Origin: Patescibacteria group bacterium
GTDB taxonomy: Bacteria > Patescibacteriota > Patescibacteriia > Buchananbacterales > UBA6539
Length of the DNA stretch: 64,000 nucleotides
NCBI GenBank assembly: GCA_041649675.1
Contig: JBAZMQ010000006.1
Location: 7,003 to 71,002, forward strand
Reading direction: 5' to 3'
Each line of letters begins with the position of its first letter. Positions within the stretch are counted from its first letter, which is position 1. The notes under the pieces are model-generated. The model had not been told where the DNA came from and searched no databases. It worked only from the letters and a program-made list of their open reading frames with translations. Below, piece after piece: positions 3,066-52,421 of the stretch. Position numbers and translations under genes: made by a program.

Positions 3066-4037
3066 ATGTCTAAAGAAATAATTTTGTCGGGCATTAGACC
3101 GACAGGAAAATTGCATATTGGAAACTATTTAGGTTCCCTGGCCAACTTCGTGGAATTGCAAAATCAATACGAAGGCTATTTTTTTATTGCTGATTTACAT
3201 TCCCTAAATGAGCCGTTTGATCCCAAAACCAAATACCAACAAATAATTAATTTGGCCAAAGATTATATTGCCGCCGGTCTTGATCCAAAAAAATGTACGA
3301 TTTTTGTTCAATCTCACATTCCCCAACATGCCGAATTAGCAATAATTTTAGCCAACACCATCCCGGTTTCTTTCTTGTACCGAATGACTCAATTTAAAGA
3401 AAAATCAAATGACCGAGCCAAGGAAAATGTTAATGCCGGTTTATTATATTACCCAGTTTTAATGGCCGCCGACATTTTAGCTTATAAATCAACGATTGTA
3501 CCAGTTGGTCTAGATCAAACGCAACACGTTGAATTAGCCAGAGATGCTGCCGGATTTTTCAATAATAAATTTGGCAAGATTTTTCCCGAACCTAAACCGC
3601 TTTATACCAAGATTCCAAAAGTCATGAGCTTATTAGCACCAGACAAAAAAATGTCCAAAAGTTTGGGCGATAGTCATTGCATTTATATTGATGATGAGCC
3701 CGAAATAATTAAACAAAAATTAGCCAAAGCGGTAACGGATACTGGCGATGGTAAAAGTTTGGGTGCTAAAAATCTTTTAGACTTGGTAAAAATATTTTCC
3801 GATCAAAAAGTTTATTCCAAGCTAGCCGAGGACAGCAAAAATGGCAGTTTAAAATACTCAGAACTCAAACAACAACTAGCTGCTGATATTGCAAATTATT
3901 TTTCCGACTTTAGAAAAAAGAAAAAACAAATCACTGATGAGCAGATAGAAAAAATTCTGACTGGCGGAAACAAAAAGGCCCAAGCCATAGCCCAAAAAAC
4001 TCTGGACGAGGTCAGAAAAAAGATTGGAATTCGATGA
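3066..4037 (+). CDS. trpS: tryptophanyl-tRNA synthetase
   Basis: HIGN (HIGH-class) motif near the N-terminus. KMSKS present. The size and overall pattern fit TrpRS. Confidence 0.9.
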   Translation: MSKEIILSGIRPTGKLHIGNYLGSLANFVELQNQYEGYFFIADLHSLNEPFDPKTKYQQIINLAKDYIAAGLDPKKCTIFVQSHIPQHAELAIILANTIPVSFLYRMTQFKEKSNDRAKENVNAGLLYYPVLMAADILAYKSTIVPVGLDQTQHVELARDAAGFFNNKFGKIFPEPKPLYTKIPKVMSLLAPDKKMSKSLGDSHCIYIDDEPEIIKQKLAKAVTDTGDGKSLGAKNLLDLVKIFSDQKVYSKLAEDSKNGSLKYSELKQQLAADIANYFSDFRKKKKQITDEQIEKILTGGNKKAQAIAQKTLDEVRKKIGIR

Positions 4038-5961: not shown

Positions 5962-7458
5962 TCAGCGACCAACGCCGCCTTCGCAATTTCCTACATCGTA
6001 CAACTGATTCAAGATGTAGGCGGGCAAGCCATCTTCGTAAATGGCGATATTCCCAGTCAGCGCGGGCCCTAACTCGGCCTCGTCAACCGGGTAGCCATTG
6101 AAAGGAAAAACAAACGGCACTGGCACACTGGCTGGTTGGCCGTCTGTAATCTCAATCAGATAGCCCAGAAACCGCGCTTGGTCTCGGCCAAGGTCATCCT
6201 GGAACAGGTCGGCTTCAACGCTGGTAGCCAGCGGGGCTTCCAGCTTGGGATAAAGCTGAGGCGAAATTGGGCAGTTCAACCCGGTCTCGTCAGCCATATC
6301 ATATAAACCGCGGACTCTCACCCACAAGTTACTGTGAGCGACCACATCGAACCCGGGAAAGTCAATCACAAGAATTCCCGTCACTGGATCGGGTACCGGA
6401 TTAGTAAGAGAGATACCGGGAAACTCCGGAATTTCTCCCTCACCCTCACTGGCTGGATTGACTTGTACTGTCGCGAAAATCGTATTGTTAATCTCATCGA
6501 TTTCCGCTAATTCATCGGCTGCATCAACCTTCTGAAGCAGCTGTTTTACACCAGCCGAAGTGAAATGACCAGTTGATATTATACTGAATGTCCCGCCCGG
6601 AGGCAACGGCATATCGTGATCAATGCCAGGCAGTCCGTCAAAGACAAAGTCCTCAAAGTTCCGATAGCCACTACACAGCCCAATGCACGAGGTCAGCGGC
6701 TGTGAACCATAATAATGACCCCAAGCCGTAATCGTGACTTCCGCACCAACTGTTAATGGGGTGGCAAAAGTAAACTCGTCTAAGACAAGATCAGACCAGG
6801 CTTCTTGGCCGTCCAATCTAATCATTAAGGCTCGCAGACTGCCACCGGTTGTGAGTAACCAGGTGTCCCAGTTTGAGGAACGCCGGAATGCATTCGCGTA
6901 AGGTGTAAAGGGATTCCAATCCTCCCCAACGTAGAACGTCCCACCGGCTGCAAAAGGATTCCACTGAATCCCGGCAAAGACTTCTGTCTCATTGAGGGTG
7001 ATCCCGACTGGAACATTGAAAAAATTGTCCGCCGGCGAAGATAAATCCTTCACATCCGTTAACAGAGCCGGGATGGAAGCTAATAATACTCCAGGAGCAT
7101 TATCTTCCACGCTATAGAACACTATGTTGCAACTTAAGTCCGGATTTGGACTTTCTGGGACGTTACGCCCCATGGCGACACACAGGCTGTTGACTTGGTA
7201 TGGTACTGGCAAGGTAAAACGCTGAACGAATTCCGCGCTAGTTACTTCAGGGTTTGGCCCGTAACCGATACCACCGTCAATGCTGCCATCGTCCAGGGTG
7301 ATAGCATCGGTACACGTATTCCACTCACCCGTATCCTGATTGAATACGTTTTGGACGAAGTTCGTGTATGAGAACGCGGCGTACCGGAATCTTTCGTTGA
7401 ATGTGTTTGTGTCAAAGGTTTTGCCTTCTTGCAACACATACAACGTATCTACAAACAC
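5962..7458 (-). CDS. GC-rich protein without its own signal peptide; probable frameshifted continuation of 7449..8921
   Basis: Starts with GTG, overlapping the last 10 nt of the upstream ORF in a different frame. Same high-GC composition. No RBS is apparent. Confidence 0.5.
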   Translation of the reverse strand: MFVDTLYVLQEGKTFDTNTFNERFRYAAFSYTNFVQNVFNQDTGEWNTCTDAITLDDGSIDGGIGYGPNPEVTSAEFVQRFTLPVPYQVNSLCVAMGRNVPESPNPDLSCNIVFYSVEDNAPGVLLASIPALLTDVKDLSSPADNFFNVPVGITLNETEVFAGIQWNPFAAGGTFYVGEDWNPFTPYANAFRRSSNWDTWLLTTGGSLRALMIRLDGQEAWSDLVLDEFTFATPLTVGAEVTITAWGHYYGSQPLTSCIGLCSGYRNFEDFVFDGLPGIDHDMPLPPGGTFSIISTGHFTSAGVKQLLQKVDAADELAEIDEINNTIFATVQVNPASEGEGEIPEFPGISLTNPVPDPVTGILVIDFPGFDVVAHSNLWVRVRGLYDMADETGLNCPISPQLYPKLEAPLATSVEADLFQDDLGRDQARFLGYLIEITDGQPASVPVPFVFPFNGYPVDEAELGPALTGNIAIYEDGLPAYILNQLYDVGNCEGGVGR

Positions 7459-8921
7459 CGTTGCTTCGCCGGCGGTTGGGTAGACATCAGGCCTTGAATC
7501 ATCAAAGCCTTCACGAGGTGGTTAGTCAGAGTTGCGATAAACCGCGCCCGGGCATACCGCGAACCAACGTTAGCTGTAATAAAGATTCGCGGTTCAGTAG
7601 AATCCAGTTTGCACAAGAAGTTGTGGTCACCGGCTACTGATCGTAGGGTTAAAAGCGGATCGGTGGTAGAAAATCCATACCACACCATCATGCCGTCGTC
7701 ACTTAGCTGGACCTCGTCGGGAACAAAAATCCCGGCAAAGTTTTGGCCGCCAAGATGTGTGACCCGAACGCCATTACTGGCGTAATAAACGGGATTTTCC
7801 GGAGCAATAATGGTAAAGCCAGCCGCACCCGGCCAAGAATCACCAGGCGGGGCATAACGCCAACTGTACTCGCCAACAGACGTTAACATATAATCAAGGG
7901 TGTAGTCACCACCCGAGAATACGTCCGGGACCAACATTGCCACCATAAAGGTGTCCAAGTTACTGAGATGGATACTAAGTGGATTGAATGGTGAACTCCA
8001 GACAAAAGAGCTTTCATAGTCATCATACTGGGATTCAATCTCCAACCCTTTCCAAGTATCAAATTGCCAGCCAACTTGAGGAAAGCTTTGAATAGTGACA
8101 TCAGTCCCAACTTCAAATTTCATTCCATTGTTTGGCAATGAGTCAACGGCGGCGGGAGATAAAGAAAAGCCACCTTGACCCAAAGGAAATGATTTGACCC
8201 AGAGGTCAACGAGCTCTCCTTCGCCTTCTCCTTCTCCTTCGACACTTCCTTCACCTTCGGGTCGGCCTTCTCCTTCGGAAGGTATGCCAAAGACAGCATA
8301 GATCAACAAGTCACGAGTGACTGTTAGTGTCACTGTTGACTCGGCGCAGGTGTCACCTGAGTCGTGATCAGAATAATACAAAAAATTATCCCGACACGTT
8401 ACTACTGACAAGGTGACTTGGCTGCCAGCCGGATAGGTCGCCTGATTTGGCTCAATACTGACTTGACAGTCAGCTCCTTCCGGTATGAGCTGGACTTCCA
8501 CAAAGAAGCCCAACTCGCCTTCAGTGCCACCAAGACAAAAGCCATCTTCCGTGCCAGCTTCTGGACAAGCGTGATATACGCCAGCGTTGAATAACTGAAT
8601 CAGGCGCAGCAGCTCGGATAAGCTTATTTGCCAGTCCTGCGGCGCATAGTCACTGCTATGGGGTACGCAGTCCTGCGGCAAAGGACTTAATCCGGGAGCA
8701 AAGCCATCTTCCGTGCCGGCTTGGCAATGCAAACCATCCGAGTTAAAAAACTGGATAACGCGCAGTAATTCATTCAGACTGATGGCGCCGTTGCCATCCA
8801 AATCGGCGGAATAAACCGCCTCGGCTTGGTTACAGACAATGATCCCGACAAACACAATTAATGCCAGGATAAAGTTTTGGTTCGGCTTTAGGTTTTTCAA
8901 CGTCAATCTCCTTTTCTTCAA
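7449..8921 (-). CDS. GC-rich secreted protein with signal peptide, two dockerin-like Ca-binding repeats and an acidic EGEG repeat (N-terminal part of a split gene?)
   Basis: Signal peptide MKKRRLTLKNLKPNQNFILALIVFVGII. The repeats DLDGNGAISLNELLRVIQFFN and DWQISLSELLRLIQLFN, each followed by a CxAGTEDGF segment. EGEGRPEGEGSVEGEGEGEGE tract. GC content is clearly above the neighbouring DNA. Confidence 0.6.
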   Translation of the reverse strand: MKKRRLTLKNLKPNQNFILALIVFVGIIVCNQAEAVYSADLDGNGAISLNELLRVIQFFNSDGLHCQAGTEDGFAPGLSPLPQDCVPHSSDYAPQDWQISLSELLRLIQLFNAGVYHACPEAGTEDGFCLGGTEGELGFFVEVQLIPEGADCQVSIEPNQATYPAGSQVTLSVVTCRDNFLYYSDHDSGDTCAESTVTLTVTRDLLIYAVFGIPSEGEGRPEGEGSVEGEGEGEGELVDLWVKSFPLGQGGFSLSPAAVDSLPNNGMKFEVGTDVTIQSFPQVGWQFDTWKGLEIESQYDDYESSFVWSSPFNPLSIHLSNLDTFMVAMLVPDVFSGGDYTLDYMLTSVGEYSWRYAPPGDSWPGAAGFTIIAPENPVYYASNGVRVTHLGGQNFAGIFVPDEVQLSDDGMMVWYGFSTTDPLLTLRSVAGDHNFLCKLDSTEPRIFITANVGSRYARARFIATLTNHLVKALMIQGLMSTQPPAKQRCL

Positions 8922-14468: not shown

Positions 14469-14578
14469 CTGTCATTCTGAGGGAGTGCCGACATATAGTC
14501 GGCCCGACCGAAGAATCTCATACTATTTTTATAGGGATAAGATTCTTCACCCCGACTAAGTCGGGGTTCAGAATGACA
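14469..14578 (+). repeat. MITE-like structured repeat, copy 1 (TIR TGTCATTCTGAG / CTCAGAATGACA, inner IR CGAAGAATC / GATTCTTC)
   Basis: Nested inverted repeats read directly from the sequence. An ATG of the Elp3 gene lies 12 nt downstream. Confidence 0.8.
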
Positions 14579-16256: not shown

Positions 16257-16961
16257 TCAGACTTGCACCGTCGGATGGCTACGGCGCAATTGGACAACTG
16301 TCCCGTCGGATAAAACAACCGGCGTTGGGTTGTGCCACTCTACTCCTTGTTTCTGACAAGGCAAGGTTGGAAAACCGGCTGACTCACTAAAGGCCCTGAG
16401 CGGCTGGGTGATTGCGCCTACAACCGGGCTGCAAGCAACAGCTACACCACCAACAATAACTAATTCGCCGGCGCCAGAACATCCACTTCTGCAGACAGCA
16501 CACGACGGTTCAAAGACTATCTTTGAATCCAGTACTATCGCGTCTAGTACCGGTGCCCGATGAAAGACTTTCACATGACCTTTGACTGAGAGATTAACTC
16601 CCTCTTCACCTGGCTGACACTGCTGACAAGGCAAGCAGCTCAGTTCAACTTCTTCCGGAAACTGGCGATAAGCCAGTATGCTGTAATCAGGCGCCGTCAG
16701 TTGAGCGGCTGGAAAACAGCCAATGCATAATCCTGGCTGGTCGGCTTTGGTAATCGCAATACCCCGACCATGGCAAGCGGTACAACCATTCCAGGGCCAT
16801 TTGGTGTCTTTGCTCCGGTAGGTTTCTAACGGAGCCGCTGCCTGAGGCAAAACGATTTTTGCCCCGCCTGCGGCTGTTTTAACAATCCGATGATTTGTCT
16901 TGTTTGCCATAATCTGATAATCCTCATAGTTTTGGGTTCTGCCTTTATTAACCGGAAACAT
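16257..16961 (-). CDS. GC-rich Cys-rich protein with one CxxCH heme-binding-type motif (c-type cytochrome-like?)
   Basis: CTACH motif plus multiple CxxC pairs. GC content is clearly above the flanks. Confidence 0.45.
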   Translation of the reverse strand: MFPVNKGRTQNYEDYQIMANKTNHRIVKTAAGGAKIVLPQAAAPLETYRSKDTKWPWNGCTACHGRGIAITKADQPGLCIGCFPAAQLTAPDYSILAYRQFPEEVELSCLPCQQCQPGEEGVNLSVKGHVKVFHRAPVLDAIVLDSKIVFEPSCAVCRSGCSGAGELVIVGGVAVACSPVVGAITQPLRAFSESAGFPTLPCQKQGVEWHNPTPVVLSDGTVVQLRRSHPTVQV

Positions 16962-17076
16962 ATTTCCCAGCTAACTCCATAATATACATACAATCTATCC
17001 AATTGTCAATCCCTAAAACAAGAGCTATAATATATATGCCAATAACAAAAATATTATAAATTAATTATATTAAATT

Positions 17077-17231
17077 GTTATTCTGAGGCCGACTACTCTC
17101 ATTGTTAAGTGAGGCCGAAGAATCTCCTTAACTTAGTGGATCCTTTGGCCCCAAACCTAATTAAGCGGCGACCTCAGGATGACCAGAAGGAGATTCTTTA
17201 CTCTCAAGAATAGCTTGGAGCTCAGAATGAC
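17077..17231 (+). repeat. MITE-like structured repeat, copy 2 (composite; roughly the reverse complement of copy 3)
   Basis: GTTATTCTGAGG ... GAGCTCAGAATGAC, with internal CGAAGAATCTCC / GGAGATTCTT and TCATCCTGAGG sub-repeats. An ATG lies 9 nt downstream. Confidence 0.75.
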
Positions 17232-17240
17232 GGAAAAGAT

Positions 17241-18328: not shown

Positions 18329-19582
18329 ATGAAATACGAACAACTAAGAGCCCAGGACCCCCAAATAGCAGATCTGATTGCTTTGGAAATCAAAAGACAG
18401 CAAGACGGTTTGGTAATGATCCCTTCGGAAAATCATGCTTCCGTCGCGGTTTTGGAAGCGATGGCAACGGTTTTATCCAATAAATACGCCGAAGGCTATC
18501 CTAATAAACGCTACTATACTGGCAACCAATATATTGATCAAATTGAATTACTGGCAATCAGCAGAGCCAAAGAATTATTTGGCGCCGAGCATGCCAATGT
18601 TCAACCCAACGCCGGCAGCGGGGCCAACCTGGCAATTTATTTAGCCACTTTAAAACCGGGCGACAAAGTCATGGGTATGAAACTGGACCAAGGCGGTCAT
18701 TTGACTCACGGCCATCCGGTTAATTTATCCGGCCAACTTTATAATTTTGTCCAATACGGCGTTAGAAAAGACACCGAACTAATTGACTTGGAAGAAATTC
18801 GAACAATGGCGAAAAAAGAAAAACCGAAAATGATCGTCACCGGCGCTACCGCTTACCCCAGAATTTTTGACTTCAAAGCTTTTAAAGAAATTTGCGATGA
18901 AGTCGGCGCAATTCTATTGGCTGATATTTCTCATTTTGTCGGACTCTGTATTTCCGGTGATCACCCAAAGCCTTTCCCCTATGCCGACTTTGTCATGACT
19001 ACCACCCATAAAACTTTACGCGGACCAAGAAGTGCTATAATCCTAGCCAAAGAAAAATACGCCAAAGCCATTGATAAAGCAATTTTTCCTGGCACCCAGG
19101 GCGGACCGCTAGAGCATGTGATTGCGGCTAAAGCAGTTTGCTTTCAAGAAGCATTAAAACCGGAATTCAAAGATTATGCCAGTCAAATTGTTAAAAATGC
19201 CAAAGCCTTAGCTAAAACTTTCATTGACCAGGGATTGGAATTGGTTTCTGGTGGTACGGACAATCATTTAATGCTAATTAAATGCGCACCGCTTGGTTTA
19301 ACCGGTCGCCAAGGTTCGGAAGTTTTGGCCGAAGGCGGAATTTATACCAATCGCAACACCGTACCTTATGATACGGGTTCGGCCTTTGAACCAACCGGCA
19401 TTCGCCTAGGCACGCCAGCCTTAACTACCAGAGGAATGAAAGAACCAGAGATGGAAATTATTGGAAAAATTATTGCTAAAGTTCTAAAGAATGCCAATGA
19501 TGATAAAATTAAAAAAGAGCTCAAAGATACTGTTTTTCAATTAACCAAAAAATTCCCAACCTATCCGGGCATGTCTATTTAA
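18329..19582 (+). CDS. glyA: serine hydroxymethyltransferase
   Basis: PLP site TTTHKTLRGPR and the HLTHGH motif. Confidence 0.9.
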   Translation: MKYEQLRAQDPQIADLIALEIKRQQDGLVMIPSENHASVAVLEAMATVLSNKYAEGYPNKRYYTGNQYIDQIELLAISRAKELFGAEHANVQPNAGSGANLAIYLATLKPGDKVMGMKLDQGGHLTHGHPVNLSGQLYNFVQYGVRKDTELIDLEEIRTMAKKEKPKMIVTGATAYPRIFDFKAFKEICDEVGAILLADISHFVGLCISGDHPKPFPYADFVMTTTHKTLRGPRSAIILAKEKYAKAIDKAIFPGTQGGPLEHVIAAKAVCFQEALKPEFKDYASQIVKNAKALAKTFIDQGLELVSGGTDNHLMLIKCAPLGLTGRQGSEVLAEGGIYTNRNTVPYDTGSAFEPTGIRLGTPALTTRGMKEPEMEIIGKIIAKVLKNANDDKIKKELKDTVFQLTKKFPTYPGMSI

Positions 19583-19590
19583 TCCGCCCT

Positions 19591-19722
19591 CTGTCATTCT
19601 GAGCTCTAAGCTATTATTGAGCGCGAAGAATCTCTTTCTGGTCATCCTGAGGTCACCACTTAATTAGGTTTAGGACCGAAAGATCCACTAAGCCAAGGGA
19701 TTCTTCGGCCTCAGAATGACAA
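19591..19722 (+). repeat. MITE-like structured repeat, copy 3
   Basis: CTGTCATTCTGAGC ... CCTCAGAATGACAA with inner CGAAGAATCTC / GGATTCTTCGG. The folD ATG lies 12 nt downstream. Confidence 0.8.
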
Positions 19723-19732
19723 CCATAAAAAA

Positions 19733-20590
19733 ATGTCAAAACAAATTGCAAAAAAGATAGATGGCAAATTGATTGCCGAAAAAATATTACTTGACCTAAA
19801 AGCCAAGATTACTAAGCTTAAGCGGCCGCCAGGTTTGGCTGTGATTTTAATTGGCAATGATTCAGCTTCTCAGCTTTATGTCAGAAATAAAAAAAAGGCC
19901 AGCCAAAAAATCGGCATTGAATTTCACGACTACCTTTGCGGCGGTAAATGTTACCCTCATATCACGGAAAACGAAATTTTGCAAATGATTGATTTTTTAA
20001 ATGCTGACCAAACTGTTGATGGTATTATTGTTCAATTGCCAATCCCAAAAAAGTTTGACTCGCAAAAAATTATAAACCGAATCTCGCCGCAAAAAGACGT
20101 TGATGGTTTTCATCCCCAAAACAAAAAAAACTTTTTGGCCTCAAAACCAGGTATCATTCCCCCCTTAATGCAAGCAATTAACGAAGCTTTAATTTTTACG
20201 GGTGAGAATTTAAAAGGCAAAGAAGCGGTAATAGTGGTTAATAACCCAATTTACAGCGAGACCAGAAAAAAAGAATTTACCGATTTGGGTTTGAAGGTAA
20301 AAATTACTAAACCCGGACCAAACTTAGCTAATGAAACTAGAAAGGCAGATGTCTTGGTTGTAATTTTAGGCCAAAAAAACTTAATTAAAAAATCAATGGT
20401 CAAGCCCGGCGCCATTGTAATTGATGTTGGTACAAATTTAATTTCCAAAAACAACTGGACTGGCGACGTTGACCCCAAGGTCGCCCAAGTGGCTGGTTGG
20501 CTAACACCGGTGCCCGGTGGTATCGGTCCAATGACGGTGGCTTTCTTGCTAAAAAACACCTACGAACAAGCCAAAAACAAATTACAATAA
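19733..20590 (+). CDS. folD: bifunctional methylene-THF dehydrogenase / methenyl-THF cyclohydrolase
   Basis: FolD length and motifs (VILIGNDSASQLYV... and GGIGPMTVAFLLKNT). Confidence 0.9.
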   Translation: MSKQIAKKIDGKLIAEKILLDLKAKITKLKRPPGLAVILIGNDSASQLYVRNKKKASQKIGIEFHDYLCGGKCYPHITENEILQMIDFLNADQTVDGIIVQLPIPKKFDSQKIINRISPQKDVDGFHPQNKKNFLASKPGIIPPLMQAINEALIFTGENLKGKEAVIVVNNPIYSETRKKEFTDLGLKVKITKPGPNLANETRKADVLVVILGQKNLIKKSMVKPGAIVIDVGTNLISKNNWTGDVDPKVAQVAGWLTPVPGGIGPMTVAFLLKNTYEQAKNKLQ

Positions 20591-20732: not shown

Positions 20733-21086
20733 CTACGCGATGGCGGTCTGCCGACGGGAAAACCGTTGCGGCATAAACGCGCGCGCTTTCTGGAAAACCC
20801 GTTTCGTCCAGGATTTCTCCGTCTTTTTGGACGGAACGATCACATCGGACATGATCTTGGGAGGGGCAAGGATGCCCTTCACGACGGTGTCGGTGGTCCG
20901 GCGCTTGCGCTTGGTGGTCCGGTTCAGCAGCTTGTTTGCGCTCTCCGTGGTCAGTTGACCGCGCTTCTGCAGAACCTTCACGGCGCGCTTTTGCGGGTCG
21001 CCATTGGGCATTAAGTAAGCGGGAATGAACTTATCACCGCGCCGTTGCCGAAGCCGCCGTTCAATATGACGTTGATGTGCATTCAT
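20733..21086 (-). CDS. small basic protein (117 aa, K/R-rich) inside a GC-rich insertion
   Basis: RBS AAGGAGA lies 6 nt upstream of the ATG. No family recognised. Region 20650-21110 is markedly GC-rich. Confidence 0.4.
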   Translation of the reverse strand: MNAHQRHIERRLRQRRGDKFIPAYLMPNGDPQKRAVKVLQKRGQLTTESANKLLNRTTKRKRRTTDTVVKGILAPPKIMSDVIVPSKKTEKSWTKRVFQKARAFMPQRFSRRQTAIA

Positions 21087-24035: not shown

Positions 24036-25133
24036 TTAGTTTACGGAAATGAACATATCCTCGCGCTGGAATTGCACCAAAGGCTTGCCCAGCATCTGGC
24101 CGCAGATCTTCAGGTAGATATTGGTAGTCTCCTCAACCGTCTCTTCGGGCCATTCCAGTTCCGAGACCCAATTGACGTGGGCTTCGTTCTCCGGATCGAG
24201 GTTGTCTATACCGATAATCTGCTCACCCTTGTGTTCACCCTTTTCGTAGAAAAACGGCGTAGGAACCTTGGCGCCGATAGCGCGGACATATTCTTTATCC
24301 GACGTTTCCAGGTTCGTACCGGCTGCCATTGCGGCATTATATTTCTCTTCCTCAATGAACCGCGATGAATCAGGGGTAAGAATCTCATCTGCCGCCACCA
24401 GCTCATTGTTGGCATTCAAACCAAACTCAAACTTGGTGTCAAAAAGGATGATTTTCTTAGATTTGGCATAGTCTGATCCCCGATCATACAACTTGAGCGA
24501 GAGATCCACTGCTTCCTGCGCCAACTGTTTTGGATCGCGGTTAATGCCATTTTCCCGCAGCCAGGCACCAAGAATCACCAGCATTTCGCCAAAAGTCAGA
24601 TGTTTATCGTGGCCGTCCTCGGATTTAGTCGTGGGGGTAGCAATTGCCGTAGATAATTTGCAACCCTTAGTGAGACCTTCAGGCAATAAAATGCCACAGA
24701 CTTCACGGGTCGCTTGGTAGCTTTTCCAACCGCTGCCACCCAAATAGCCGCGAACGACAAACTCGATGGGCAACATCCTGAGATTAAGAACAATCATGCC
24801 CCGCGATTGCAGGTCGGCGTTCCCACGCAATTCTTCGGGTAGATACTTGTCAATGGCCGCGCCATACGCCACGAGGTGGTTGGGGATATCCGCGAAGACA
24901 TTCAATAGCCAGTCGATGGTCATGGCGGTTAGGACCGAGCCCTTGAGCGAAATCAGCAGATTGAGGATGAAATCAAAAATGCTGATTCGGTCCGTGGCGA
25001 CGATAAGCCGCAAGTCGGGAAAACTAGGCAAGGCGTAGGAGTTGCGCACCTTGCCGACAGTCAATTCGTTGAGCTTTGTTGCCAGCAAGATGAATAGCGG
25101 CAACGCAAGCAGTCTGGGGTTAATCTTTTTCAT
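24036..25133 (-). CDS. purC: SAICAR synthetase (long form)
   Basis: FVVRGYLGGSGW and DTKFEFG motifs. GC-rich. Confidence 0.8.
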   Translation of the reverse strand: MKKINPRLLALPLFILLATKLNELTVGKVRNSYALPSFPDLRLIVATDRISIFDFILNLLISLKGSVLTAMTIDWLLNVFADIPNHLVAYGAAIDKYLPEELRGNADLQSRGMIVLNLRMLPIEFVVRGYLGGSGWKSYQATREVCGILLPEGLTKGCKLSTAIATPTTKSEDGHDKHLTFGEMLVILGAWLRENGINRDPKQLAQEAVDLSLKLYDRGSDYAKSKKIILFDTKFEFGLNANNELVAADEILTPDSSRFIEEEKYNAAMAAGTNLETSDKEYVRAIGAKVPTPFFYEKGEHKGEQIIGIDNLDPENEAHVNWVSELEWPEETVEETTNIYLKICGQMLGKPLVQFQREDMFISVN

Positions 25134-25175
25134 GGTTTCTTCTTTTCCTTCCTGTCTGTTGTAACTTGTTGTTTT

Positions 25176-25898
25176 CTATCCGAGAGCCGCAATGGCTTGG
25201 GTCCACGTTTGAAACGACGCTTCTTTGCCTTTGGCGTCGGCAATCCGTTGCCGTAAATCGTCAGGGATTTGGCCGTTAACCGCGAATTCGCAAGCGCGAG
25301 TAAAACCGTCGGGGCCAAAGTACTGTCCGGCTTCATCACCGCTAATAAGCAGATCCGCGCCGGGAAATTGCGTCATGGCCAGTAAGGCAGCCACATTTTT
25401 TCGCTGCTCATCATTCATTGCCGCCACAATCTCCTGGGGCGTCCGAGCGCTGTTGAGAACAACGTTGACTTCCGAGTCGGTTGTCGGCTCTTTTGGTTTC
25501 TCACACTTCAGAGCCACACCAATAACAATGATGTTTTTGGCGTGGAGTCCGTGGTACAAATAGCCTGCGGCTAAGCCGGGCAAAACTGCCAGCCAGCCAG
25601 CGGCCATGACCAAGACGTAATCGGTATCGAGATGGCTTTGCGCAATATTCGCCAGCCTGGTCAAAAACTCAAACAGGATGGCGAAGTTCCGATGGGCACT
25701 GATCGTGAAGTGCCCTGTGCCTCTGTGCTTGGGCTCAAGTACCAGCCGAACCGCCGGGTCCAGATCAATAATTTTCCCTGACTCGATCGCAGCCAAAGCT
25801 GCCGCCAGCGTTTTCCAACCGCCGCCTAACTGTTTGGCGTCGTTTGGCGAGCCAGCAATGGTTATAACTACCCTTTTTCTTGTTTCTTCAGTTGCCAC
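25176..25898 (-). CDS. purE: AIR carboxylase family (PurE-like) with C-terminal extension
   Basis: VVITIAGSPND (GSxSD-like) and AAGWLAVLPGLAAG...IIVIGVA (PurE core). GTG start. Confidence 0.65.
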   Translation of the reverse strand: MATEETRKRVVITIAGSPNDAKQLGGGWKTLAAALAAIESGKIIDLDPAVRLVLEPKHRGTGHFTISAHRNFAILFEFLTRLANIAQSHLDTDYVLVMAAGWLAVLPGLAAGYLYHGLHAKNIIVIGVALKCEKPKEPTTDSEVNVVLNSARTPQEIVAAMNDEQRKNVAALLAMTQFPGADLLISGDEAGQYFGPDGFTRACEFAVNGQIPDDLRQRIADAKGKEASFQTWTQAIAALG

Positions 25899-26126
25899 TG
25901 ATACTGTCCAACCTTTCTGGTTTTGTCCTTACGGACGCTTCGTTTTCTTTTCCATACCTCCCTTGTTTTGGGCGGTATCTTGCTTTGTCAATAAAATATA
26001 TTGTCAAAAAACAAAGTCTTTCCTCCTTGATCCGCCAAAGCCCGAGGGCAGAGGCAAACTCCTTGAAAAGACTAGTTTTGTACTCACAAATTAACAAAAA
26101 AATAATTAAATGTCAATGATCACCAA

Positions 26127-26214
26127 TTGTCATTCTGAAGAAGCGAAGCGGCTGAAAAATCCCAAAAGTTTAAGATTCTTCGCGCTAAAATATCGCTTAG
26201 AGCTCAGAATGACA
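26127..26214 (+). repeat. MITE-like structured repeat, copy 4
   Basis: TTGTCATTCTGAAG ... GAGCTCAGAATGACAG. An ATG lies 10 nt downstream (27-codon ORF). Confidence 0.75.
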
Positions 26215-26331
26215 GTAGGAGATATGCGCCTATTCGTTAATGTTATTTGGATAAAAAAAAGAAGCCAGTCAAACCCTCATGGATCTGACCGGCCGTTGAT
26301 TACTTAAACTTCCCTCCACCTCTTTCTTCGC

Positions 26332-28206
26332 CTAGTGCTTGGCAAAAAGCCGATCGGCGCTACTCAGGAAGGCGACAGAAAGCCCGGACTTGCTAAACAA
26401 AGCCTTGACGTTCTCGATCTCCTTGCCGTCAGCCGGCACCACGCCACCGATACAACCGGCGTCAATGAGCAATTCGGTTCCCTCTCGTCTATCCGATTGG
26501 GAAATCAGTGTGGCCATTTCGCCCAACAGCCTGATCGTCTCCAGTTGATTGCCAACCCGGTCAGCACTTCTCGCCTGAGCCAACAGCCACTCAATCTGGG
26601 CTAAGTCTACCGGCGGCTGTTCTCCGGTGGCATACGGGAAGAATGCATCCGAGGCAAAAACCGAACCTTGGGTGGTATGCCCAGCCCGTCTGGCCCGCTC
26701 AATGCAGAGCCTGACACAGGCAATCCGGTCTTGCTGGCCGCAGCCGAGACCAATTAACATCCGGTTCTTGGCCAAAGCCACGGTATTGCTGGAAGACCGA
26801 TAACAGGCCACCCAGGCAATCAGCAGATCTTCAAACCGGTCGTCGCTCAAAGGCACCCCGACCCAGGATTCAATCGTTTCCCTGGTCAGGATAAAACTTG
26901 GCGCCTTCTGTTTAAGGACATCACCGTTGCCAAGAAACTGCCACATCCATTCATTGGTTGGCATTTGCGGATCCAGTAATGCCAAATTGCTTAACAACCG
27001 GCGTTTCTCCCGCTTCCCTAGCTGCTCAACCGCGCCCGGGGAAAATGACGGAGCATAGATAATGTCCAGACCCCAGTTCTTCCGGCCAATCAACAGACTG
27101 AGTGGCGGGGACATCAATTCAACTCCAAGTTCATCGGTGATAGCGAAATTGGTAACTACTTCACCGCCCATTACCGCTACCTTGTCACCCGTCAAAGCTT
27201 TACGCAAAGCCGTTATGGGACTGGCCCAATCAACACCAATGCCGCAAACATTGCCGTGCTTTCCGGCAACAACAATGTACGGCACTTTACCGTAGACTCT
27301 TCGGTAAGCCTCGGCCAGAAAACGCAAAGCCCCGATCAGGCCGGCACCGTCTGCGATGCTGATGTAGCTAGGGTCGCCGGAAACGACTTGAAACTTGCTA
27401 GTTGCCAGCGGATCGTCGCTGTCGGTGGTAAACAGAAAAGCCGGGTCTTGGCGGTGATTTTCAGCATAGGCCAACTTTCGCGCCAACCGCATGAAGATGC
27501 CATCGAAATGACCGCCGCTGTGAAAACGGGCGGATTCCATCCGGTACCGAGACACGACGAAGTCAGCCTTGGCACAAAGGGCATTGCGGGTCTCTTCGGT
27601 AATCTCACCGTTATGCTCGCGCATCTGGTCAATCACCATCTGCCGGTCAGCCGGATCGCAAATCACAATTCGGCGACCCTTGGCTCCTTCGGAAACCATG
27701 GTCGGCCCGCCAATGTCAGTACCTTCGACAACCGACTCGGTTGTCGCGCCTTCCGCCTCGATTGCTCTCATTAGGGCATAGAAGTCGCAAACCACCATGT
27801 CGATGAAGGGGATACCAAACTTCGCCAGTTCCTTAAGATCAGAATCAATAGCCCGTGCGAGGAGTCCGGCTGATTTCGGCCGCGAAAGACTCACTACGCG
27901 ATGACCGAGCATCGGATTAGCATCAAGCAACTTTGCGACAGCTTTGGCTGAGAGCTTCCGACCACCCCTTTTGGTCTTAAAAGAAATACCGGCGCTAACA
28001 AATTCCTGAACCATGCTGCGCGTAATCATGTCAGCGATGTCTTGAACTTTGATACCGGCCGCCGCCAGATATTTGCACGTACCGGCCGAGCCAATAATGT
28101 GCCAGTTGCCCAATGCCTGCAACTGCCGAACAAAATCGACAATGTTAGGATTTTCCTTTTCAGTGACACTAATTAGCGCCACCCTCTGTCTCTGTTTTTC
28201 GGACAT
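26332..28206 (-). CDS. purH: bifunctional AICAR transformylase / IMP cyclohydrolase
   Basis: MGS domain ALISVTEK, DIGGPTMV, GCGQQDR and ASDAFFPYA motifs. GC-rich. Confidence 0.85.
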   Translation of the reverse strand: MSEKQRQRVALISVTEKENPNIVDFVRQLQALGNWHIIGSAGTCKYLAAAGIKVQDIADMITRSMVQEFVSAGISFKTKRGGRKLSAKAVAKLLDANPMLGHRVVSLSRPKSAGLLARAIDSDLKELAKFGIPFIDMVVCDFYALMRAIEAEGATTESVVEGTDIGGPTMVSEGAKGRRIVICDPADRQMVIDQMREHNGEITEETRNALCAKADFVVSRYRMESARFHSGGHFDGIFMRLARKLAYAENHRQDPAFLFTTDSDDPLATSKFQVVSGDPSYISIADGAGLIGALRFLAEAYRRVYGKVPYIVVAGKHGNVCGIGVDWASPITALRKALTGDKVAVMGGEVVTNFAITDELGVELMSPPLSLLIGRKNWGLDIIYAPSFSPGAVEQLGKREKRRLLSNLALLDPQMPTNEWMWQFLGNGDVLKQKAPSFILTRETIESWVGVPLSDDRFEDLLIAWVACYRSSSNTVALAKNRMLIGLGCGQQDRIACVRLCIERARRAGHTTQGSVFASDAFFPYATGEQPPVDLAQIEWLLAQARSADRVGNQLETIRLLGEMATLISQSDRREGTELLIDAGCIGGVVPADGKEIENVKALFSKSGLSVAFLSSADRLFAKH

Positions 28207-28234
28207 TGTTGTATCTTCCTCTCATTCTGTTTGA

Positions 28235-29821
28235 CTAAGCCGCGATAGGCTTGAGTCCGTTGGTTGTTTCCCGTCTTGCATCTTTAATCGCATCACCCAT
28301 GTAATGCGTTGGGTGCTTCAATAAATGAAGTTCCCGGCGCGTTAGGCCCTTCCAGGCGCGACGGAATTTCTGGTCGGTTTCATTAGCCTGCAGGTAAAGC
28401 TCAGCCGCGACACAAAGGTTTGGCGCTCCGGCCTTAACCCGGGCAATCAACTCCTTTTTGACAAAAGTATGAGCGCCGGCAAATCCCTCGCGCTGTAATG
28501 CATTATGAAGCAATTCCGCCAAAGACGCTGGCCCAAATGTCTGAACCCAGTGCAGACAGCGCTCTTCGTTGAAGGCTAGGACGCTCATCTGCCGCTTTAC
28601 GCTGTAAAGCTCCTGAGCAAAGTACTCCAAGGCTTCAATGAATGTCCTCATAACCGATGACCAACGCAAATCGCGTTGGAAATTGCTGCCGCGCGTCAAC
28701 CAAGGTCTTAAGGCGCAACTCAGTACGATTGTGTCTGCACCAATGGCATTTTCGGCCCGGATTGGATTAGCTTCTTTAGCCGCTCCGGCCGAAGAGGTGG
28801 AAGTGACATCCACCTCCTTTGAAGGAACAACCTCACCGAGTTCGGGCATATGCAAGATGCGAAGGTCTTCGCACAGACTCATCATCGGTCCGCCGATGGC
28901 AACAAGGTCACTATAAAAATGAACCGTATGATGAATCGGCGCAATCTGGGTGCTGCCTTTAGCGACTGGTAAGTCCAGAATGCTCATCAGTGTTCGTTCT
29001 GCTTTCTTGGGAATACCCACCGCTCGCTGGGATGCAGCCGTACCAACGAAACCGCAAAATTTGCCCGGCATAGCTAAAGCGGCCCGCTGCAGTTCAAGGG
29101 CACAATCGGTAAATTGCCGATGGGCACAAGCCAGGTAAAATCCGACGGTACCGGGTATGGCTGGCTGCAAGTGAGTGCGAAACATCTGGCGCGTCGTCAA
29201 ATATTCGTTGATCTTTGCCCGCCAGGTTTCATCAAGCGCCATCATCTTTGGCCACAGAACCAGACTGAACACGACTCGAAGCTGCAGGGCATATGCCGTT
29301 GAAATCGTATCATAGGAAGTTGCCGTATAGTGCAGCCACTTCCAAAGTCCTTTGGGCAAATACCGGCGCATCAAAGCCAACAACGCCAAGATGTCGTGAC
29401 CCATTCCCTTGGTCCCTTTCTTCTTGTCGCCGTATTCCAGCCGGTCTTGTTTGGTTGTAGTAACGTGCTTGAGCACATACAATAAACGTTCGGTGGTCAG
29501 AAGCCTGGCGTCTTTTTCGGGCATGACTCCGATGATGGCCAACGCCACCATCCAGAACCATTCCACGATGACCAACCAGGCCGCCCACTGGTCGTAACCA
29601 AGATACGGAACCAATTCAGGCTGCTGCTCTTCGTAGCGGTGATCCATATGCATCACTAAAACTCGCCGCGGATCCTCAGCCAGAACCGCCAGATAAGCAA
29701 TTGCGGCTGCCAACATCTCTCTTGCCTGTTTAATCGTCATACGCTTTGAACCTTTCTCCAATTTTTTTTCTATCAGCCATAGCCAAATGACCAATTCATC
29801 TAAACCTATATTTATTGTCAA
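28235..29821 (-). CDS. purB: fumarate-lyase superfamily, adenylosuccinate lyase-like
   Basis: SSAGAAKEANPIRAE resembles the GSSxMPxKxNP signature. About 100 aa N-terminal extension. GC-rich. Confidence 0.55.
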   Translation of the reverse strand: MTINIGLDELVIWLWLIEKKLEKGSKRMTIKQAREMLAAAIAYLAVLAEDPRRVLVMHMDHRYEEQQPELVPYLGYDQWAAWLVIVEWFWMVALAIIGVMPEKDARLLTTERLLYVLKHVTTTKQDRLEYGDKKKGTKGMGHDILALLALMRRYLPKGLWKWLHYTATSYDTISTAYALQLRVVFSLVLWPKMMALDETWRAKINEYLTTRQMFRTHLQPAIPGTVGFYLACAHRQFTDCALELQRAALAMPGKFCGFVGTAASQRAVGIPKKAERTLMSILDLPVAKGSTQIAPIHHTVHFYSDLVAIGGPMMSLCEDLRILHMPELGEVVPSKEVDVTSTSSAGAAKEANPIRAENAIGADTIVLSCALRPWLTRGSNFQRDLRWSSVMRTFIEALEYFAQELYSVKRQMSVLAFNEERCLHWVQTFGPASLAELLHNALQREGFAGAHTFVKKELIARVKAGAPNLCVAAELYLQANETDQKFRRAWKGLTRRELHLLKHPTHYMGDAIKDARRETTNGLKPIAA

Positions 29822-29904
29822 AAAACAAAGTCTTTCCCTCCCTGGAAAGACTGTTTTGTATTATTAATCTAACAAAATTGCCACTAAATGTCAAAATAAC
29901 CAAT

Positions 29905-30022
29905 TGTCATTCTGAGGGATCCACCCCCTGTCTACCAACAGACAGGCGGGGGTGGAGACCGAAGAATCTCAAACGTTTGGGATTCTTCGCACCCAGATAT
30001 TGCTTGGAGCTCAGAATGACAG
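29905..30022 (+). repeat. MITE-like structured repeat, copy 5
   Basis: TTGTCATTCTGAGG ... GAGCTCAGAATGACAG with inner palindrome CCACCCCCTGTC / GACAGGCGGGGGTGG and CGAAGAATC / GATTCTTCG. An ATG lies 10 nt downstream (15-codon ORF). Confidence 0.8.
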
Positions 30023-30106
30023 TACGAGATATGTACATATTCGTAATGCCATTCGCCTACAAAAAAAGACCAGCCTGAATATCTTTCAAGCTGGGATAAA
30101 AATCCA

Positions 30107-30742
30107 TTAAAGAGGCAGGTACATTTCCTCCAAATGCTGCCAAATAGTTTCTGGCGAGGAATCGACGTTAACGGTGACTTTAACAATAGTTACACTTCTT
30201 TCCCGATAAAAGTTGCTTAGTTTCAGGATTTCTTGGCTAAAAATAGCCAGCCTTTTTTTGACTTCATCCTCTGAGTCATCCTTTCGACCTTTACGATCAC
30301 CACTGGCATTAGTTCTTATTCGCTCAAGAGCAACTGAGTCAGTGCACTGCAAGCAAATAATAAATTTGACATCAACAATTTCTTGCAATTGGGTAGCCTG
30401 GTATAAATTCCGGGGTAAACCATTAAGCACTAAAAGACGATTTGGCCCAACTTTTTGCTCAAGGATAAACCGATCAAGAATTCTTGCAGCAATTAGGAAC
30501 TGGCCATTGGCCAAAAGGGTGCCATCTTTTAATACCTTTCGGATTGCCTGGATTTCAATTGGTTTCAGGTAACTTACTTGATTTTTGGGATCTGCTAGCC
30601 AACGCAAATGTTTGCCAAAGTCAAAATGAGAACACAAACGCTGTTTCAGTTTGTGCGACTCCAGCCAATCACAAAGTGGCGACTTGCCTGAGCCAGTTGG
30701 CCCGACTACCACTATTGCCGGATATTTGTAATGGGTTAACAT
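30107..30742 (-). CDS. adenylate-kinase-family nucleoside monophosphate kinase
   Basis: P-loop GPTGSGKS, NGLPRNLYQA (GFPR-like) and an R-x-DD lid. Start taken at the internal ATG with RBS AAGGAGAG. Confidence 0.6.
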   Translation of the reverse strand: MLTHYKYPAIVVVGPTGSGKSPLCDWLESHKLKQRLCSHFDFGKHLRWLADPKNQVSYLKPIEIQAIRKVLKDGTLLANGQFLIAARILDRFILEQKVGPNRLLVLNGLPRNLYQATQLQEIVDVKFIICLQCTDSVALERIRTNASGDRKGRKDDSEDEVKKRLAIFSQEILKLSNFYRERSVTIVKVTVNVDSSPETIWQHLEEMYLPL

Positions 30743-32181: not shown

Positions 32182-34029
32182 ATGAATACAGATAACGGGT
32201 TGAAATCAAACTCTGAGGAAGCCAAACGATTTTCCGAAAAACTCAAGGCCCTTGGGCTACCGGTTCTTCCCATGGAAGACTCGTTTTTGAACATGGAACA
32301 CCTTCTTCGGACTATTGAAGAAGGCTGGCAAGATTGTTTGGCCGCAATGGAAAAGGATAACTTTGCGACGATGATGGCTCGTGGCTTACTGCCACTACTA
32401 GCCAATGAAAAAGGTGTCAGCCTGATTGGCATTAGCAGCCGGACGGACAATGGTCAGCCATACCCTGATGTCGAAGTGCTCTTTGATATGATCTCAGAAT
32501 ACTTCCGGTTTGCCAATATGAGTTGGCAAGACCCTCCCCGCCAATTTATGGTCATCCCAAACGATACTTTCCAGAAAATCATCAAAAATCATCTACTGAC
32601 CGACCAACAACAACGAATCAAATACCTGGTCGGAATTAACGAAGACATGTCAACGATTGAAACCTTCCTGGCGATAGTCTTAAAGGCAATTGAGTTGAAA
32701 GCCTCGGATATCCATATTGAGTTTGACGATGGCTTGCCAGTACCAGAATCATGGCAAGCGAAACTCAGCGGTCGGGCCAGCCAAACCAATGCCGGCCGAA
32801 TTCGGTTCCGGATAGACGGCAAACTGCAGGACGGAAATTATGTTTTGCCAAAAGAGTTGCTCAACCATCTGGTTGGCACGATAATGAATTTGGCCAGCGG
32901 CATAAATCCGATTGAACACCGCTTACCCCAAGACGGCAAAATCAGTTTTAGCAATCAAGTCCTTGAGGATAACCCTCAGTTGTTACCTGATCGAAAGATA
33001 CTGGAAGAGTATGAGTTACGTATAGCAATAATGCCGCCGGCTGATGGCGGGTTAAACGTGACTATAAGATTGCTTAAAAGTCATGGTGCAATCAAACCTT
33101 TAGGTGACCTTATTCCCTATCCTAGAATCATGGAACGGTTTACGACTTTAATTGAGGAATCTCAAGGCTTGGTTATTCTCTGCGGCCCGACTGGCTGCGG
33201 CAAAACCACAACGCTTTATGCGGCGCTAAACCTGATCAATGATCCGGACGTAAAAGTTCTTACGTTAGAAAATCCCCGAGAAATAAGATTACCGGGTGCT
33301 ACCCAGATAGAAATAAATGACAAAATTGGCAGAACATTTCCCGTTTGTCTAAGAGCTGCTCTCCGCTGCGATCCGGATATAATCCTGGTTGGTGAAATCC
33401 GTGATCCGGAAACCGCCCAAATAGCGGCTAGCGCGGCTGAAACTGGCCATTTGGTTTTTACCACGCTGCATACCGAGGGCAGCACAGAAGCAATTGTCCG
33501 GCTGCAAAGCCTGGGAGTGCATGCAGCAACAATTTCGGGTAGTATTCAAGCTATCTTATCCCAAAGACTGGTGCGCCACGTTTGTCCTAAATGCAGTACG
33601 CCAGTTGAAAGCAACGAATTATTAAAGGAGCTACTGGGCAAAAGAGCGCCGCTGCTAGGCTGGCCAATTTACTTTAGGCAAGCCAACCCTGAAGGGTGCC
33701 CTGAATGCAAGAGAGGCTATCTGTCCAGAGTCGTGATACCGGAATGGCTTGTATTTACAACAAAAATCAAGGATTTCATTTCTGCCGGCAAGGCCGGAGA
33801 TACTTCTGAGTTGCGCAAGTTGGCAATTGAAGAAGGTCTTAGACCTCTTGCCGTAGAGGCAATTTTGGCCGCCGCTTATGGCAAAACCACTATCCAGGAA
33901 ATCCTTAGCGAAGCTGTTACCAGTGAACAATTAACACGCTGTGGCGTCTTGGCCCATCACGCGCTTGAATCTTACAAAGAACAGATTCAAGCCTTTCAGC
34001 AACAGCACTTTCTTGGAGGGAGTAATTAA
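32182..34029 (+). CDS. type II/IV secretion (GspE/PilB-family) ATPase with long N-terminal extension
   Basis: Walker A GPTGCGKTT. ILVGEIRD Asp box. A C-terminal CxxC-x-CxxC tetracysteine. Confidence 0.75.
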   Translation: MNTDNGLKSNSEEAKRFSEKLKALGLPVLPMEDSFLNMEHLLRTIEEGWQDCLAAMEKDNFATMMARGLLPLLANEKGVSLIGISSRTDNGQPYPDVEVLFDMISEYFRFANMSWQDPPRQFMVIPNDTFQKIIKNHLLTDQQQRIKYLVGINEDMSTIETFLAIVLKAIELKASDIHIEFDDGLPVPESWQAKLSGRASQTNAGRIRFRIDGKLQDGNYVLPKELLNHLVGTIMNLASGINPIEHRLPQDGKISFSNQVLEDNPQLLPDRKILEEYELRIAIMPPADGGLNVTIRLLKSHGAIKPLGDLIPYPRIMERFTTLIEESQGLVILCGPTGCGKTTTLYAALNLINDPDVKVLTLENPREIRLPGATQIEINDKIGRTFPVCLRAALRCDPDIILVGEIRDPETAQIAASAAETGHLVFTTLHTEGSTEAIVRLQSLGVHAATISGSIQAILSQRLVRHVCPKCSTPVESNELLKELLGKRAPLLGWPIYFRQANPEGCPECKRGYLSRVVIPEWLVFTTKIKDFISAGKAGDTSELRKLAIEEGLRPLAVEAILAAAYGKTTIQEILSEAVTSEQLTRCGVLAHHALESYKEQIQAFQQQHFLGGSN

Positions 34030-52290: not shown

Positions 52291-52421
52291 TACCGCAAAA
52301 ATCTAACTTTTACCAATATTTTTAAATTGACAAAAACTCCTTATTTAGCTAAGATTTTAAAGATCTGAAAAATCGTGCAACCTACAACTAAAACAAAGTT
52401 ATCACATTGGAGGAAGAGTCT

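Follow-up and report, generated by a model that had tools for sequence, protein, structure and literature searches.

A GC-rich late purine gene slot in a Buchananbacteria-like bacterium: family-wide composition and probable gene replacement within the Candidate Phyla Radiation

How does a block of GC-rich purine biosynthesis genes come to lie beside core genes that are much poorer in GC? We analysed a stretch of 64,000 nucleotides (the window) from contig JBAZMQ010000006.1 of a Patescibacteria group bacterium, a member of the Candidate Phyla Radiation (CPR). Four minus-strand open reading frames (ORFs) at positions 24036-29821 of the window form the gene pairs purB-purH and purE-like-purC. A first reading of the letters alone (the sequence-only reading) had taken them for a horizontal acquisition that would enable the cell to turn an imported intermediate into inosine monophosphate (IMP). 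We conclude, with a probability of about 0.7, that the late purine slot is ancestral, that its genes have undergone xenologous displacement within the CPR, and that their high guanine-plus-cytosine (GC) content is family-wide and not due to a recent import from outside. The atypical composition and the horizontal replacement, the latter for PurH and PurC/PurE, are thus retained from the earlier claim; the outside donor and the newly gained capability are not.

The compositional contrast itself is borne out. The four genes have a GC content of 0.50-0.54 (Table 1) and 0.56-0.62 at third codon positions (GC3), against approximately 0.36-0.42 in recA (0.422), rpoB (0.394) and trpS (0.363), the genes with which they had been compared; rpoC is at 0.387. 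The GC content jumps at the ORF borders, and the spacer separating the two gene pairs is at 0.37-0.40. Codons ending in G and in C are both more frequent in the block, and among the amino acids Ala and Arg are increased and Lys and Ile decreased. The dinucleotide distance between the block and the rest of the window is 106.8; among other 5.8 kb windows the median distance is 31 and the largest 62. A tetranucleotide comparison, which the sequence-only reading had proposed, also makes the block the strongest compositional outlier in the window (correlation with the rest of the window 0.54, other windows at least 0.93).

This contrast recurs in other genomes. We scanned the GTDB species representatives, which do not include the window's own species, with a PurH alignment and kept the best 80 loci, mostly CPR as labelled, of which 75 were usable; loci are designated here by L numbers. 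The pur genes are GC-richer than their flanks in every related locus examined, and in the closed Berkelbacteria genome CP011213 they have a GC content of 0.48-0.53 between flanks of 0.33-0.41. Among L014-L093, the genes for PurH, PurB and PurC/E are GC-richer than the neighbouring ORFs in 69 of the 75 loci. At the median they exceed them by 4.8 GC points and 6.3 GC3 points, and in AT-rich loci by 9.0 and 11.8 points; where the genome is AT-rich the GC gap can be as wide as 16 points. For other conserved ORFs the excess is 0.7 GC points and 0.0 GC3 points (Mann-Whitney p=5e-9), the genes for serine hydroxymethyltransferase (SHMT) and FolD being near zero. High GC is a family-wide property of the late purine genes of the CPR and not a mark of recent import, and it is unusable at this slot as a time-stamp of recent foreign origin. 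The excess is specific to the pur genes across the CPR, and we found no description of it in the literature. It may be caused by exchange within a GC-richer CPR gene pool, by biased gene conversion at a recombination-prone slot or by selection.

The closest homologues of the island genes are also found within the CPR. A search of 5.8 billion proteins gave no close homologue of PurH or PurB from outside the CPR among the named close matches. For PurH, 618 homologues were detected; identity is at most 53% among the listed matches, and those with source-given names belong to Patescibacteria, Buchananbacteria, Parcubacteria, Moranbacteria or unclassified bacteria. The best PurH locus in the GTDB scan is 54% identical. 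The closest homologues of the island genes other than PurB are at most 54% identical and are all CPR where named. The sequence-only reading had stated that best matches from its own lineage with similar GC would refute it, and this is largely what was seen: the named ones are Patescibacteria or unclassified bacteria, with the same raised GC.

The position of the block is conserved as well. In related genomes the order of genes is ychF-adk-purB-purH...LigD_N...folD-glyA. The closest relative found, L008, has the order recA-efp-rpsR-ssb-rpsF-MTase-ychF-adk-purB-purH, followed by two extra genes, a purC~purE fusion, LigD_N and, further on, folD. Between ychF and LigD_N/folD/glyA, L012 and L021 hold purB-purH and L018 holds purB-purH-purC; looser versions of the slot are present in L003, L004, L014, L075 and L090. 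The site is therefore not empty in relatives, as L008, L018 and L012/L021 all have pur genes there.

Comparison of the window with these relatives reveals a mosaic. The core proteins of the window and L008 are closely similar (RecA 87% identical, YchF 79%, EF-P 72%, LigD_N 71%, FolD 65%), and so is PurB (86%); PurH is 29% identical, Adk 37%, and PurC has no match. At the DNA level purB is the sole homologous stretch of the island, with 78.2% identity over 29744-28267 (recA 78.3%). The adk gene at the same position in L008 is GC-rich, unlike that of the window. L018 (SHMT 83%) has a PurB of 42%, a PurH of 49% and a PurC of 30% identity to those of the window. In L012 (SHMT 84%) the PurB is 26% identical; it is of the ADSL_C type and passes TIGR00928, whereas the window copy is of the ASL_C type. 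PurH is 50-54% identical to proteins of distant CPR genomes (SHMT 53-63%) but only 29-49% to those of the nearest relatives (SHMT 83-84%, YchF 73-83%). PurC and PurE differ among relatives in type and in fusion, being fused in L008 and separate and in reversed order in the window. By these pairwise identities PurH, PurC/PurE and Adk are incongruent with the core genes and PurB is not.

A PurH of 29% identity where RecA is at 87%, and yet of 50-54% to distant genomes, is more than rate variation alone would produce, and points to replacement in place. The slot conserved in relatives and a purB that diverged in step with recA suggest that the set is ancestral to the Buchananbacteria-like group. 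We therefore propose that this Buchananbacteria-like CPR organism has its late purine genes in a slot, between ychF/adk and LigD_N...folD-glyA, that is ancestral and in which genes would have been replaced repeatedly in place by distant CPR versions (xenologous displacement); direction and timing of these transfers are our reading of the sequence comparisons. The purB gene has probably been in place at least since the split from L008. In these two genomes its GC3 is 0.56 and 0.61, and the synonymous divergence (pS) between them is 0.685, close to the 0.696 of recA and near saturation. Taken together, these values speak against a gene that came in recently.

The four genes named by the sequence-only reading were found where it had placed them, purE as a remote homologue only; their identities are assigned by homology, and the enzymatic activities of the products are predicted. 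PurB passes the Pfam family Lyase_1 (PF00206) with 58.4 bits (cut-off 27) and is below the cut-offs of TIGR00928 (116.9 bits, cut-off 326) and ASL_C (23.5 bits, cut-off 35). The best-scoring NCBIfam model is purB, and the top PDB matches are all adenylosuccinate lyases, the closest being that of P. aerophilum (1DOF, 1.6e-21). Aligned to 1DOF, PurB keeps the GHD (GHDIL), TSxD and THxQxAxP motifs. Adenylosuccinate lyases have catalytic His residues and a catalytic Ser in the SSxMPxKxNP loop; the corresponding loop of PurB, SSAGAAKEANP, retains Ser-Ser, Lys and Asn-Pro, and Met-Pro-His is substituted. The protein belongs to a CPR-specific clade of approximately 90 proteins, CPR wherever named, with the closest 86% identical; beyond this clade the next matches are ordinary adenylosuccinate lyases at E values of about 1e-12.

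PurH contains both expected Pfam domains, PF01808 and PF02142, with 129.8 bits (cut-off 25) and 34 bits (cut-off 24.1), and is far under the cut-offs of the two NCBIfam purH models (226 and 209 bits, cut-offs 402 and 528). It is a CPR-type protein that carries insertions in its cyclohydrolase domain and close to the C-terminus, and its closest PDB sequences are ATIC/PurH proteins (3e-36). The transformylase of this family uses a Lys-His pair, and the cyclohydrolase of human ATIC uses Lys66, Tyr104, Asp125 and Lys137. In the window PurH the KH, SNT, GxGQQDR and SDAFFP motifs and the terminal His are kept, the KH pair (K316, H317) is invariant, and equivalents of the Tyr (DFY), the Asp (TDIGG) and the second Lys (GAKG) are present. 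A phage-borne auxiliary metabolic gene was considered and rejected, as viral contigs yielded no relatives when scanned with the PurH protein and again with the PurH alignment. A CPR-like PurH that is 39% identical to that of the window occurs in L049 (3385-4893), a 7 kb contig labelled Candidatus Aenigmarchaeota archaeon. Its GC is 0.50 between flanks of 0.34 (GC3 0.46 and 0.22), and either the contig is mis-binned or the gene has crossed between domains into a DPANN archaeon.

PurC passes Pfam PF01259 with 175.8 bits (curated cut-off 20) and is slightly short of NCBIfam NF010568 (236.3 bits, cut-off 251); the closest PDB sequences are the PurC proteins of M. abscessus and yeast (1.7e-42). It is 38% identical over 364 amino acids to the PurC-PurE fusion protein of L004, and its C-terminal extension of about 80 amino acids aligns to the linker of such CPR fusion proteins.

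Direct family assignment failed for the 240-amino-acid ORF between purC and purH, which has no match in Pfam and NCBIfam at default thresholds; it took a full HMMER profile search, together with a structure model and a search by fold, to place it. A word-indexed search of the 5.8 billion proteins gave one relative only. The profile search of 1.84 billion representative proteins gave nine relatives of the long type and about 100 proteins of approximately 180 amino acids. Five of the six AIRC-containing proteins tested among the latter exceed the Pfam AIRC cut-off, and such short AIRC proteins are also found fused to SAICAR synthetase in either order. BLASTP aligns the window protein with the AIRC domain of the L004 fusion at E=1e-7. 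The active site of PurE is marked by a GSxSD phosphate loop, a 40s-loop histidine in S-x-H-R and a 70s loop AGGAAHLPG. GSxxD and S-x-H-R are invariant in the family alignment, with GSPND and SAHRN in the window protein. The AlphaFold2 model has a pLDDT of 90.8, and the three best matches to its fold in the PDB are two PurE proteins and human PAICS (2YWX, 1O4V, 2H31), with probability 1.00 and TM-scores of 0.25-0.55, modest values because of two insertions. Profile search, motifs and model agree in supporting a divergent PurE-like protein with a predicted activity only. Its 40s loop, S-A-H-R-N, we take to resemble that of class I PurE, which would imply an N5-CAIR mutase, unlike the class II carboxylase of PAICS.

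Together the four proteins could carry out the final five reactions on the way to IMP. The PurE-like protein would convert 5-aminoimidazole ribonucleotide (AIR), or its N5-carboxy form (N5-CAIR), to carboxyaminoimidazole ribonucleotide (CAIR), which PurC would convert to the succinocarboxamide SAICAR and PurB to the carboxamide AICAR. PurH would then take AICAR via the formylated FAICAR to IMP with 10-formyl-tetrahydrofolate (10-formyl-THF), which the products of glyA and folD, 4-10 kb from the pur block, could supply. The two genes are near the pur cluster in many CPR loci. No purF, purD, purN, purL or purM was found in the window or in the 6.3 kb of the contig upstream of it; no purK or early-step gene lies near the pur block, and neither a transporter nor a kinase for AIR or AICAR was seen. 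A separate 23 kb contig carries, in the 14.4 kb shown of it, the genes of the window's last 14 kb or so, and no pur gene was observed in that stretch. The first gene of that contig stretch encodes 918 amino acids, has no Pfam entry on record and may pass the window's end.

Early-step genes or their divergent relatives accompany the late ones in some other CPR loci. In Berkelbacteria CP011213 a purF of native GC adjoins the cluster (L011/L025 14752-16206; TIGR01134 427 bits, cut-off 350), and in L047, L069, L079 and L089, all Paceibacterota, divergent purM-like genes with 136-185 bits (TIGR00878 cut-off 236) lie directly beside purH-purB-purCE. We take ABY1 to be the GTDB class that holds Buchananbacteria. 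A freshwater survey reported the capacity to make IMP from phosphoribosyl pyrophosphate (PRPP) in Gracilibacteria, Microgenomatia and Paceibacteria and did not name ABY1 (PMC9166423). The earlier premise that CPR bacteria usually lack de novo purine synthesis holds in part: one survey reported a complete module for 32% of 399 CPR genomes (PMC11608272).

Several observations weigh against an ancestral slot with displacement of a working gene set. PurB, PurH and PurC are each under the NCBIfam equivalog cut-offs, and the PurE-like protein fails Pfam AIRC (PF00731) at E=0.012 and 15.6 bits (cut-off 30). In PurH, Val stands where ATIC has Lys66 (RVVSLSR, where ATIC has RVKTLHP), as it does in 12 of 14 other aligned CPR sequences, one further sequence being without the motif. 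The 70s-loop histidine is absent from the PurE-like protein (AGWLAVLPG); it is replaced throughout the long subfamily and kept in several of the shorter relatives. The displacement claim is built on pairwise identities. No PurH donor is closer than 54%, which means that the displacements happened long ago or that their sources have not been sampled. Marks of mobility are missing, with no tRNA gene in the window, no integrase adjoining the island and no direct repeats bounding it. For purB, the GC3 may have decayed neutrally from an ancestral value of about 0.76-0.79. The four-fold-site identity of 46% corresponds, as a rough estimate, to some 0.67 turnovers per lineage, which leaves room for such decay, and the retained GC3 is a suggestive argument for active GC maintenance, not a proof of it.

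The sub-threshold scores of PurB, PurH and the PurE-like protein and the altered signature loops would also be expected if the genes were paralogues with other roles, or if only PurB and PurH mattered, for AICAR/SAICAR salvage and adenylosuccinate cleavage, and no AIR-to-IMP route were at work. This idea fits the many CPR loci with purH alone and also L012 and L021, which are among the closest relatives and have purB-purH without purC or purE at the slot. We nevertheless consider it unlikely, because the four functions co-occur in many CPR loci, often adjacent or with PurC and PurE fused and in some with PurM or PurF alongside, the catalytic motifs are largely kept, and a demand for formyl-THF is in keeping with the nearby glyA and folD. 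Purely vertical descent, with genes that were never exchanged, evolved very fast and kept their GC by selection or biased gene conversion, would account for the slot and gene order conserved across the clade, for the family-wide, pur-specific GC excess and for the clear orthology of purB between the window and L008. It is poorly compatible with a PurH that is closer to far more distant genomes than to L008, with PurB types that differ between close relatives (ASL_C in the window, ADSL_C in L012) and with the different arrangement of PurC and PurE in L008, and it seems to us improbable.

The recent supply of all four genes by a GC-rich donor outside the CPR, giving a new half-pathway from imported AIR or AICAR to IMP, was the interpretation of the sequence-only reading. 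The strong compositional contrast, with codon and amino-acid usage like that of a GC-richer genome, speaks for it, as do the lack of purF/D/N/L/M within about 70 kb of the contig and the omission of ABY1 from the groups of the freshwater survey with PRPP-to-IMP capacity (PMC9166423). Against it, the named close matches of the 5.8-billion-protein search include none from outside the CPR; related genomes have the same slot with an equally high GC, the divergence of purB has kept pace with that of recA, and an importer or kinase for AIR or AICAR was not seen. We judge this origin to be very improbable. The abrupt GC switch could finally reflect an artefact of assembly or binning, in which a GC-rich fragment of another organism was joined to a CPR contig. 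Assemblies made independently from different reads (ENA ERZ27247363, Logan SRR8542065, NCBI, JGI) show the same junctions, the arrangement recurs in relatives including a closed genome, and hairpin repeats of the host type lie between the cassettes, which reduces the probability of an artefact to almost nothing.

The ancestral slot with displacement within the CPR has consequences beyond this contig. It illustrates cleanly how genes of ultra-small bacteria can be replaced while their place on the chromosome stays fixed. Whether such cells make purines from scratch or perform the late steps only bears on their dependence on a host; as Pfam and NCBIfam overlook the PurE-like protein, and PurB and PurH are under equivalog cut-offs, automated pathway calls may under-count purine synthesis in the CPR. 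More tentatively, and with rather more doubt than confidence, we suggest that PurE/C/B/H form an exchangeable late purine module that circulates in the CPR and perhaps in DPANN archaea. Its GC would stay some 10-15 points above that of AT-rich hosts even when inherited vertically, through a gene-specific GC force, such as selection or biased gene conversion at a hot spot of recombination, or through constant re-seeding from an unsampled GC-richer reservoir, and in ABY1-type lineages it may be a stand-alone half-pathway from AIR or AICAR to IMP that works on a host-derived intermediate.

The positions of the genes and of the elements around them are collected in Table 1.

Table 1. Features of the late purine slot and its surroundings (positions in the window unless a locus is named)
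Feature	Position	Strand	Remarks
purC, SAICAR synthetase, 365 aa	24036..25133	-	Pfam SAICAR_synt 1.6e-51; GC 0.503, GC3 0.620
purE-like, AIR carboxylase / N5-CAIR mutase fold (predicted), 240 aa, GTG start	25176..25898	-	GC 0.539; two insertions
8-codon upstream ORF, MEKKTKRP and stop	25929..25955	-	strong AAGGGAGG ribosome-binding site; directly 5' of the purE-like GTG; read from sequence
5' module of purE-purC operon	25996..26237	-	nested-hairpin repeat 26128-26214; TTGACA-type promoter-like box; stem/T-run/TTGACA 26002-26023
Intrinsic-terminator-like hairpin closing the purB-purH unit	26263..26294	-	14-bp stem and T-run
purH, AICAR formyltransferase / IMP cyclohydrolase, 624 aa	26332..28206	-	Pfam MGS and AICARFT_IMPCHas; GC 0.540
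purB, adenylosuccinate/SAICAR lyase, 501 aa from ATG	28235..29740	-	Lyase_1 1e-15; GC 0.513
5' module of purB-purH operon	29810..30044	-	nested-hairpin repeat 29905-30021; promoter-like TTGACA-17-TAGATT 29894-29866; stem/T-run 29852-29829; second TTGACA 29821-29816
Terminator-like hairpin 3' of adk, upstream island edge	30070..30094	-	
adk, adenylate kinase (context)	30107..30742	-	native GC 0.40
glyA (SHMT) and folD (context)	18329..20590	+	Pfam families, synteny; native GC
Nested-hairpin repeat copies	14470-14578, 17076-17232, 19592-19721, 26128-26214, 29905-30021		window
Other GC-rich blocks	5962-8921, 16257-16961, 20733-21086, 32182-34029, 52407-53759, 57296-59562		window
Non-purine island genes of relatives	L008 13731-15612; L018 8870-10078; L017 5328-6536; L014 8240-9364		
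IS200-like Y1 transposase	61342-61890	-	PF01797 4e-9; GC 0.28
PALP-family gene and trpS	1585-2880, 3066-4037	+	

The two cassettes recognised by the sequence-only reading correspond to two bicistronic units, each with a terminator-like hairpin at its 3' side and a paralogous module of about 240 nucleotides at its 5' side. The two modules are approximately 80% identical to each other, and the 22-nucleotide motif GGAAAGACTTTGTTTTTTGACA occurs in the window only at these modules. A common private leader suggests that the two operons are co-regulated; operon and promoter structure are predicted. The block as delimited by the sequence-only reading ends at 29821 with a TTG that belongs to a TTGACA box; the likely start of purB is the ATG at 29740, downstream of the ribosome-binding site GGAGAAAGG, and the gene caller of one assembly also predicts a protein of 501 amino acids. 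Rfam gave no match at gathering thresholds in the whole window, nor at E values up to 1 in 25850-30150, and a riboswitch or other known RNA leader 5' of the pur operons was rejected as these scans were empty.

The nested-hairpin repeat, TGTCATTCTGAG..CGAAGAATC..GATTCTTCG..CTCAGAATGACA, is present in five intergenic copies in the window and belongs to a genome-wide family without an Rfam match; its arms matched ten times, against a chance expectation of 0.14. A copy also lies at the island edge of a related genome (L018 11631-11689). Classical island markers were considered and rejected, as the flanking hairpin repeats are members of this family and the sole transposase-like gene, an IS200-like Y1 transposase, lies 31 kb off. 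No matching palindromes were found at the flanks of the transposase gene, which might be REP-associated and tied to the hairpin repeats. The pur islands of relatives also hold non-purine genes that are GC-rich too, namely those for a GFO/IDH/MocA-type oxidoreductase, a BFN-domain protein and, in L014, a type I GAPDH.

The pur block is not the sole GC-rich part of the window, in which other accessory-looking genes have a GC content of 0.47-0.58 (genome 0.36-0.40). They include two uncharacterised proteins of about 490 amino acids (called as a single gene of 979 amino acids in another assembly), a radical SAM/SPASM pair, and a T2SSE/PilB-type ATPase that L008 lacks at this site. A PALP-family protein, which resembles a TrpB-type enzyme in sequence, adjoins trpS; the genome has few biosynthetic genes, and these two stand isolated as a pair related to tryptophan.

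Genomic islands, and gene transfer that is mostly within the phylum, have been reported to be common in Patescibacteria (PMC12455944). The pur block resembles them in being an atypical block of metabolic genes exchanged within Patescibacteria, and differs from them in having no integrase, tRNA or direct repeats and in representing replacement at a fixed slot, not a novel insertion.

With the late pur operons of Escherichia coli and Bacillus subtilis the window shares the same four families, the predicted AIR-to-IMP chemistry and clustered, co-oriented genes. Its versions differ in being of a divergent CPR type and in forming two pairs of genes, each pair behind its own copy of a private leader; the Rfam scans detected no PurR box at its pur operons, and neither a purine nor a ZTP riboswitch. 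PAICS-like PurC-PurE fusions are known from animal PAICS and occur in the CPR loci L003, L004, L008 and L011. The PurC extension of the window aligns with the linker of these CPR proteins, and the PurE-like protein is homologous to their AIRC domain; in the window the two genes are separate and purE precedes purC.

Xenologous, or in situ, gene displacement has been described in bacteria for aminoacyl-tRNA synthetases and for operon genes. The late purine slot resembles these cases in that close relatives have, with the same function and at the same position, a distant copy of the gene. It differs from them in that several adjacent genes of one slot appear to have been hit independently, and in that all the versions are elevated in GC.

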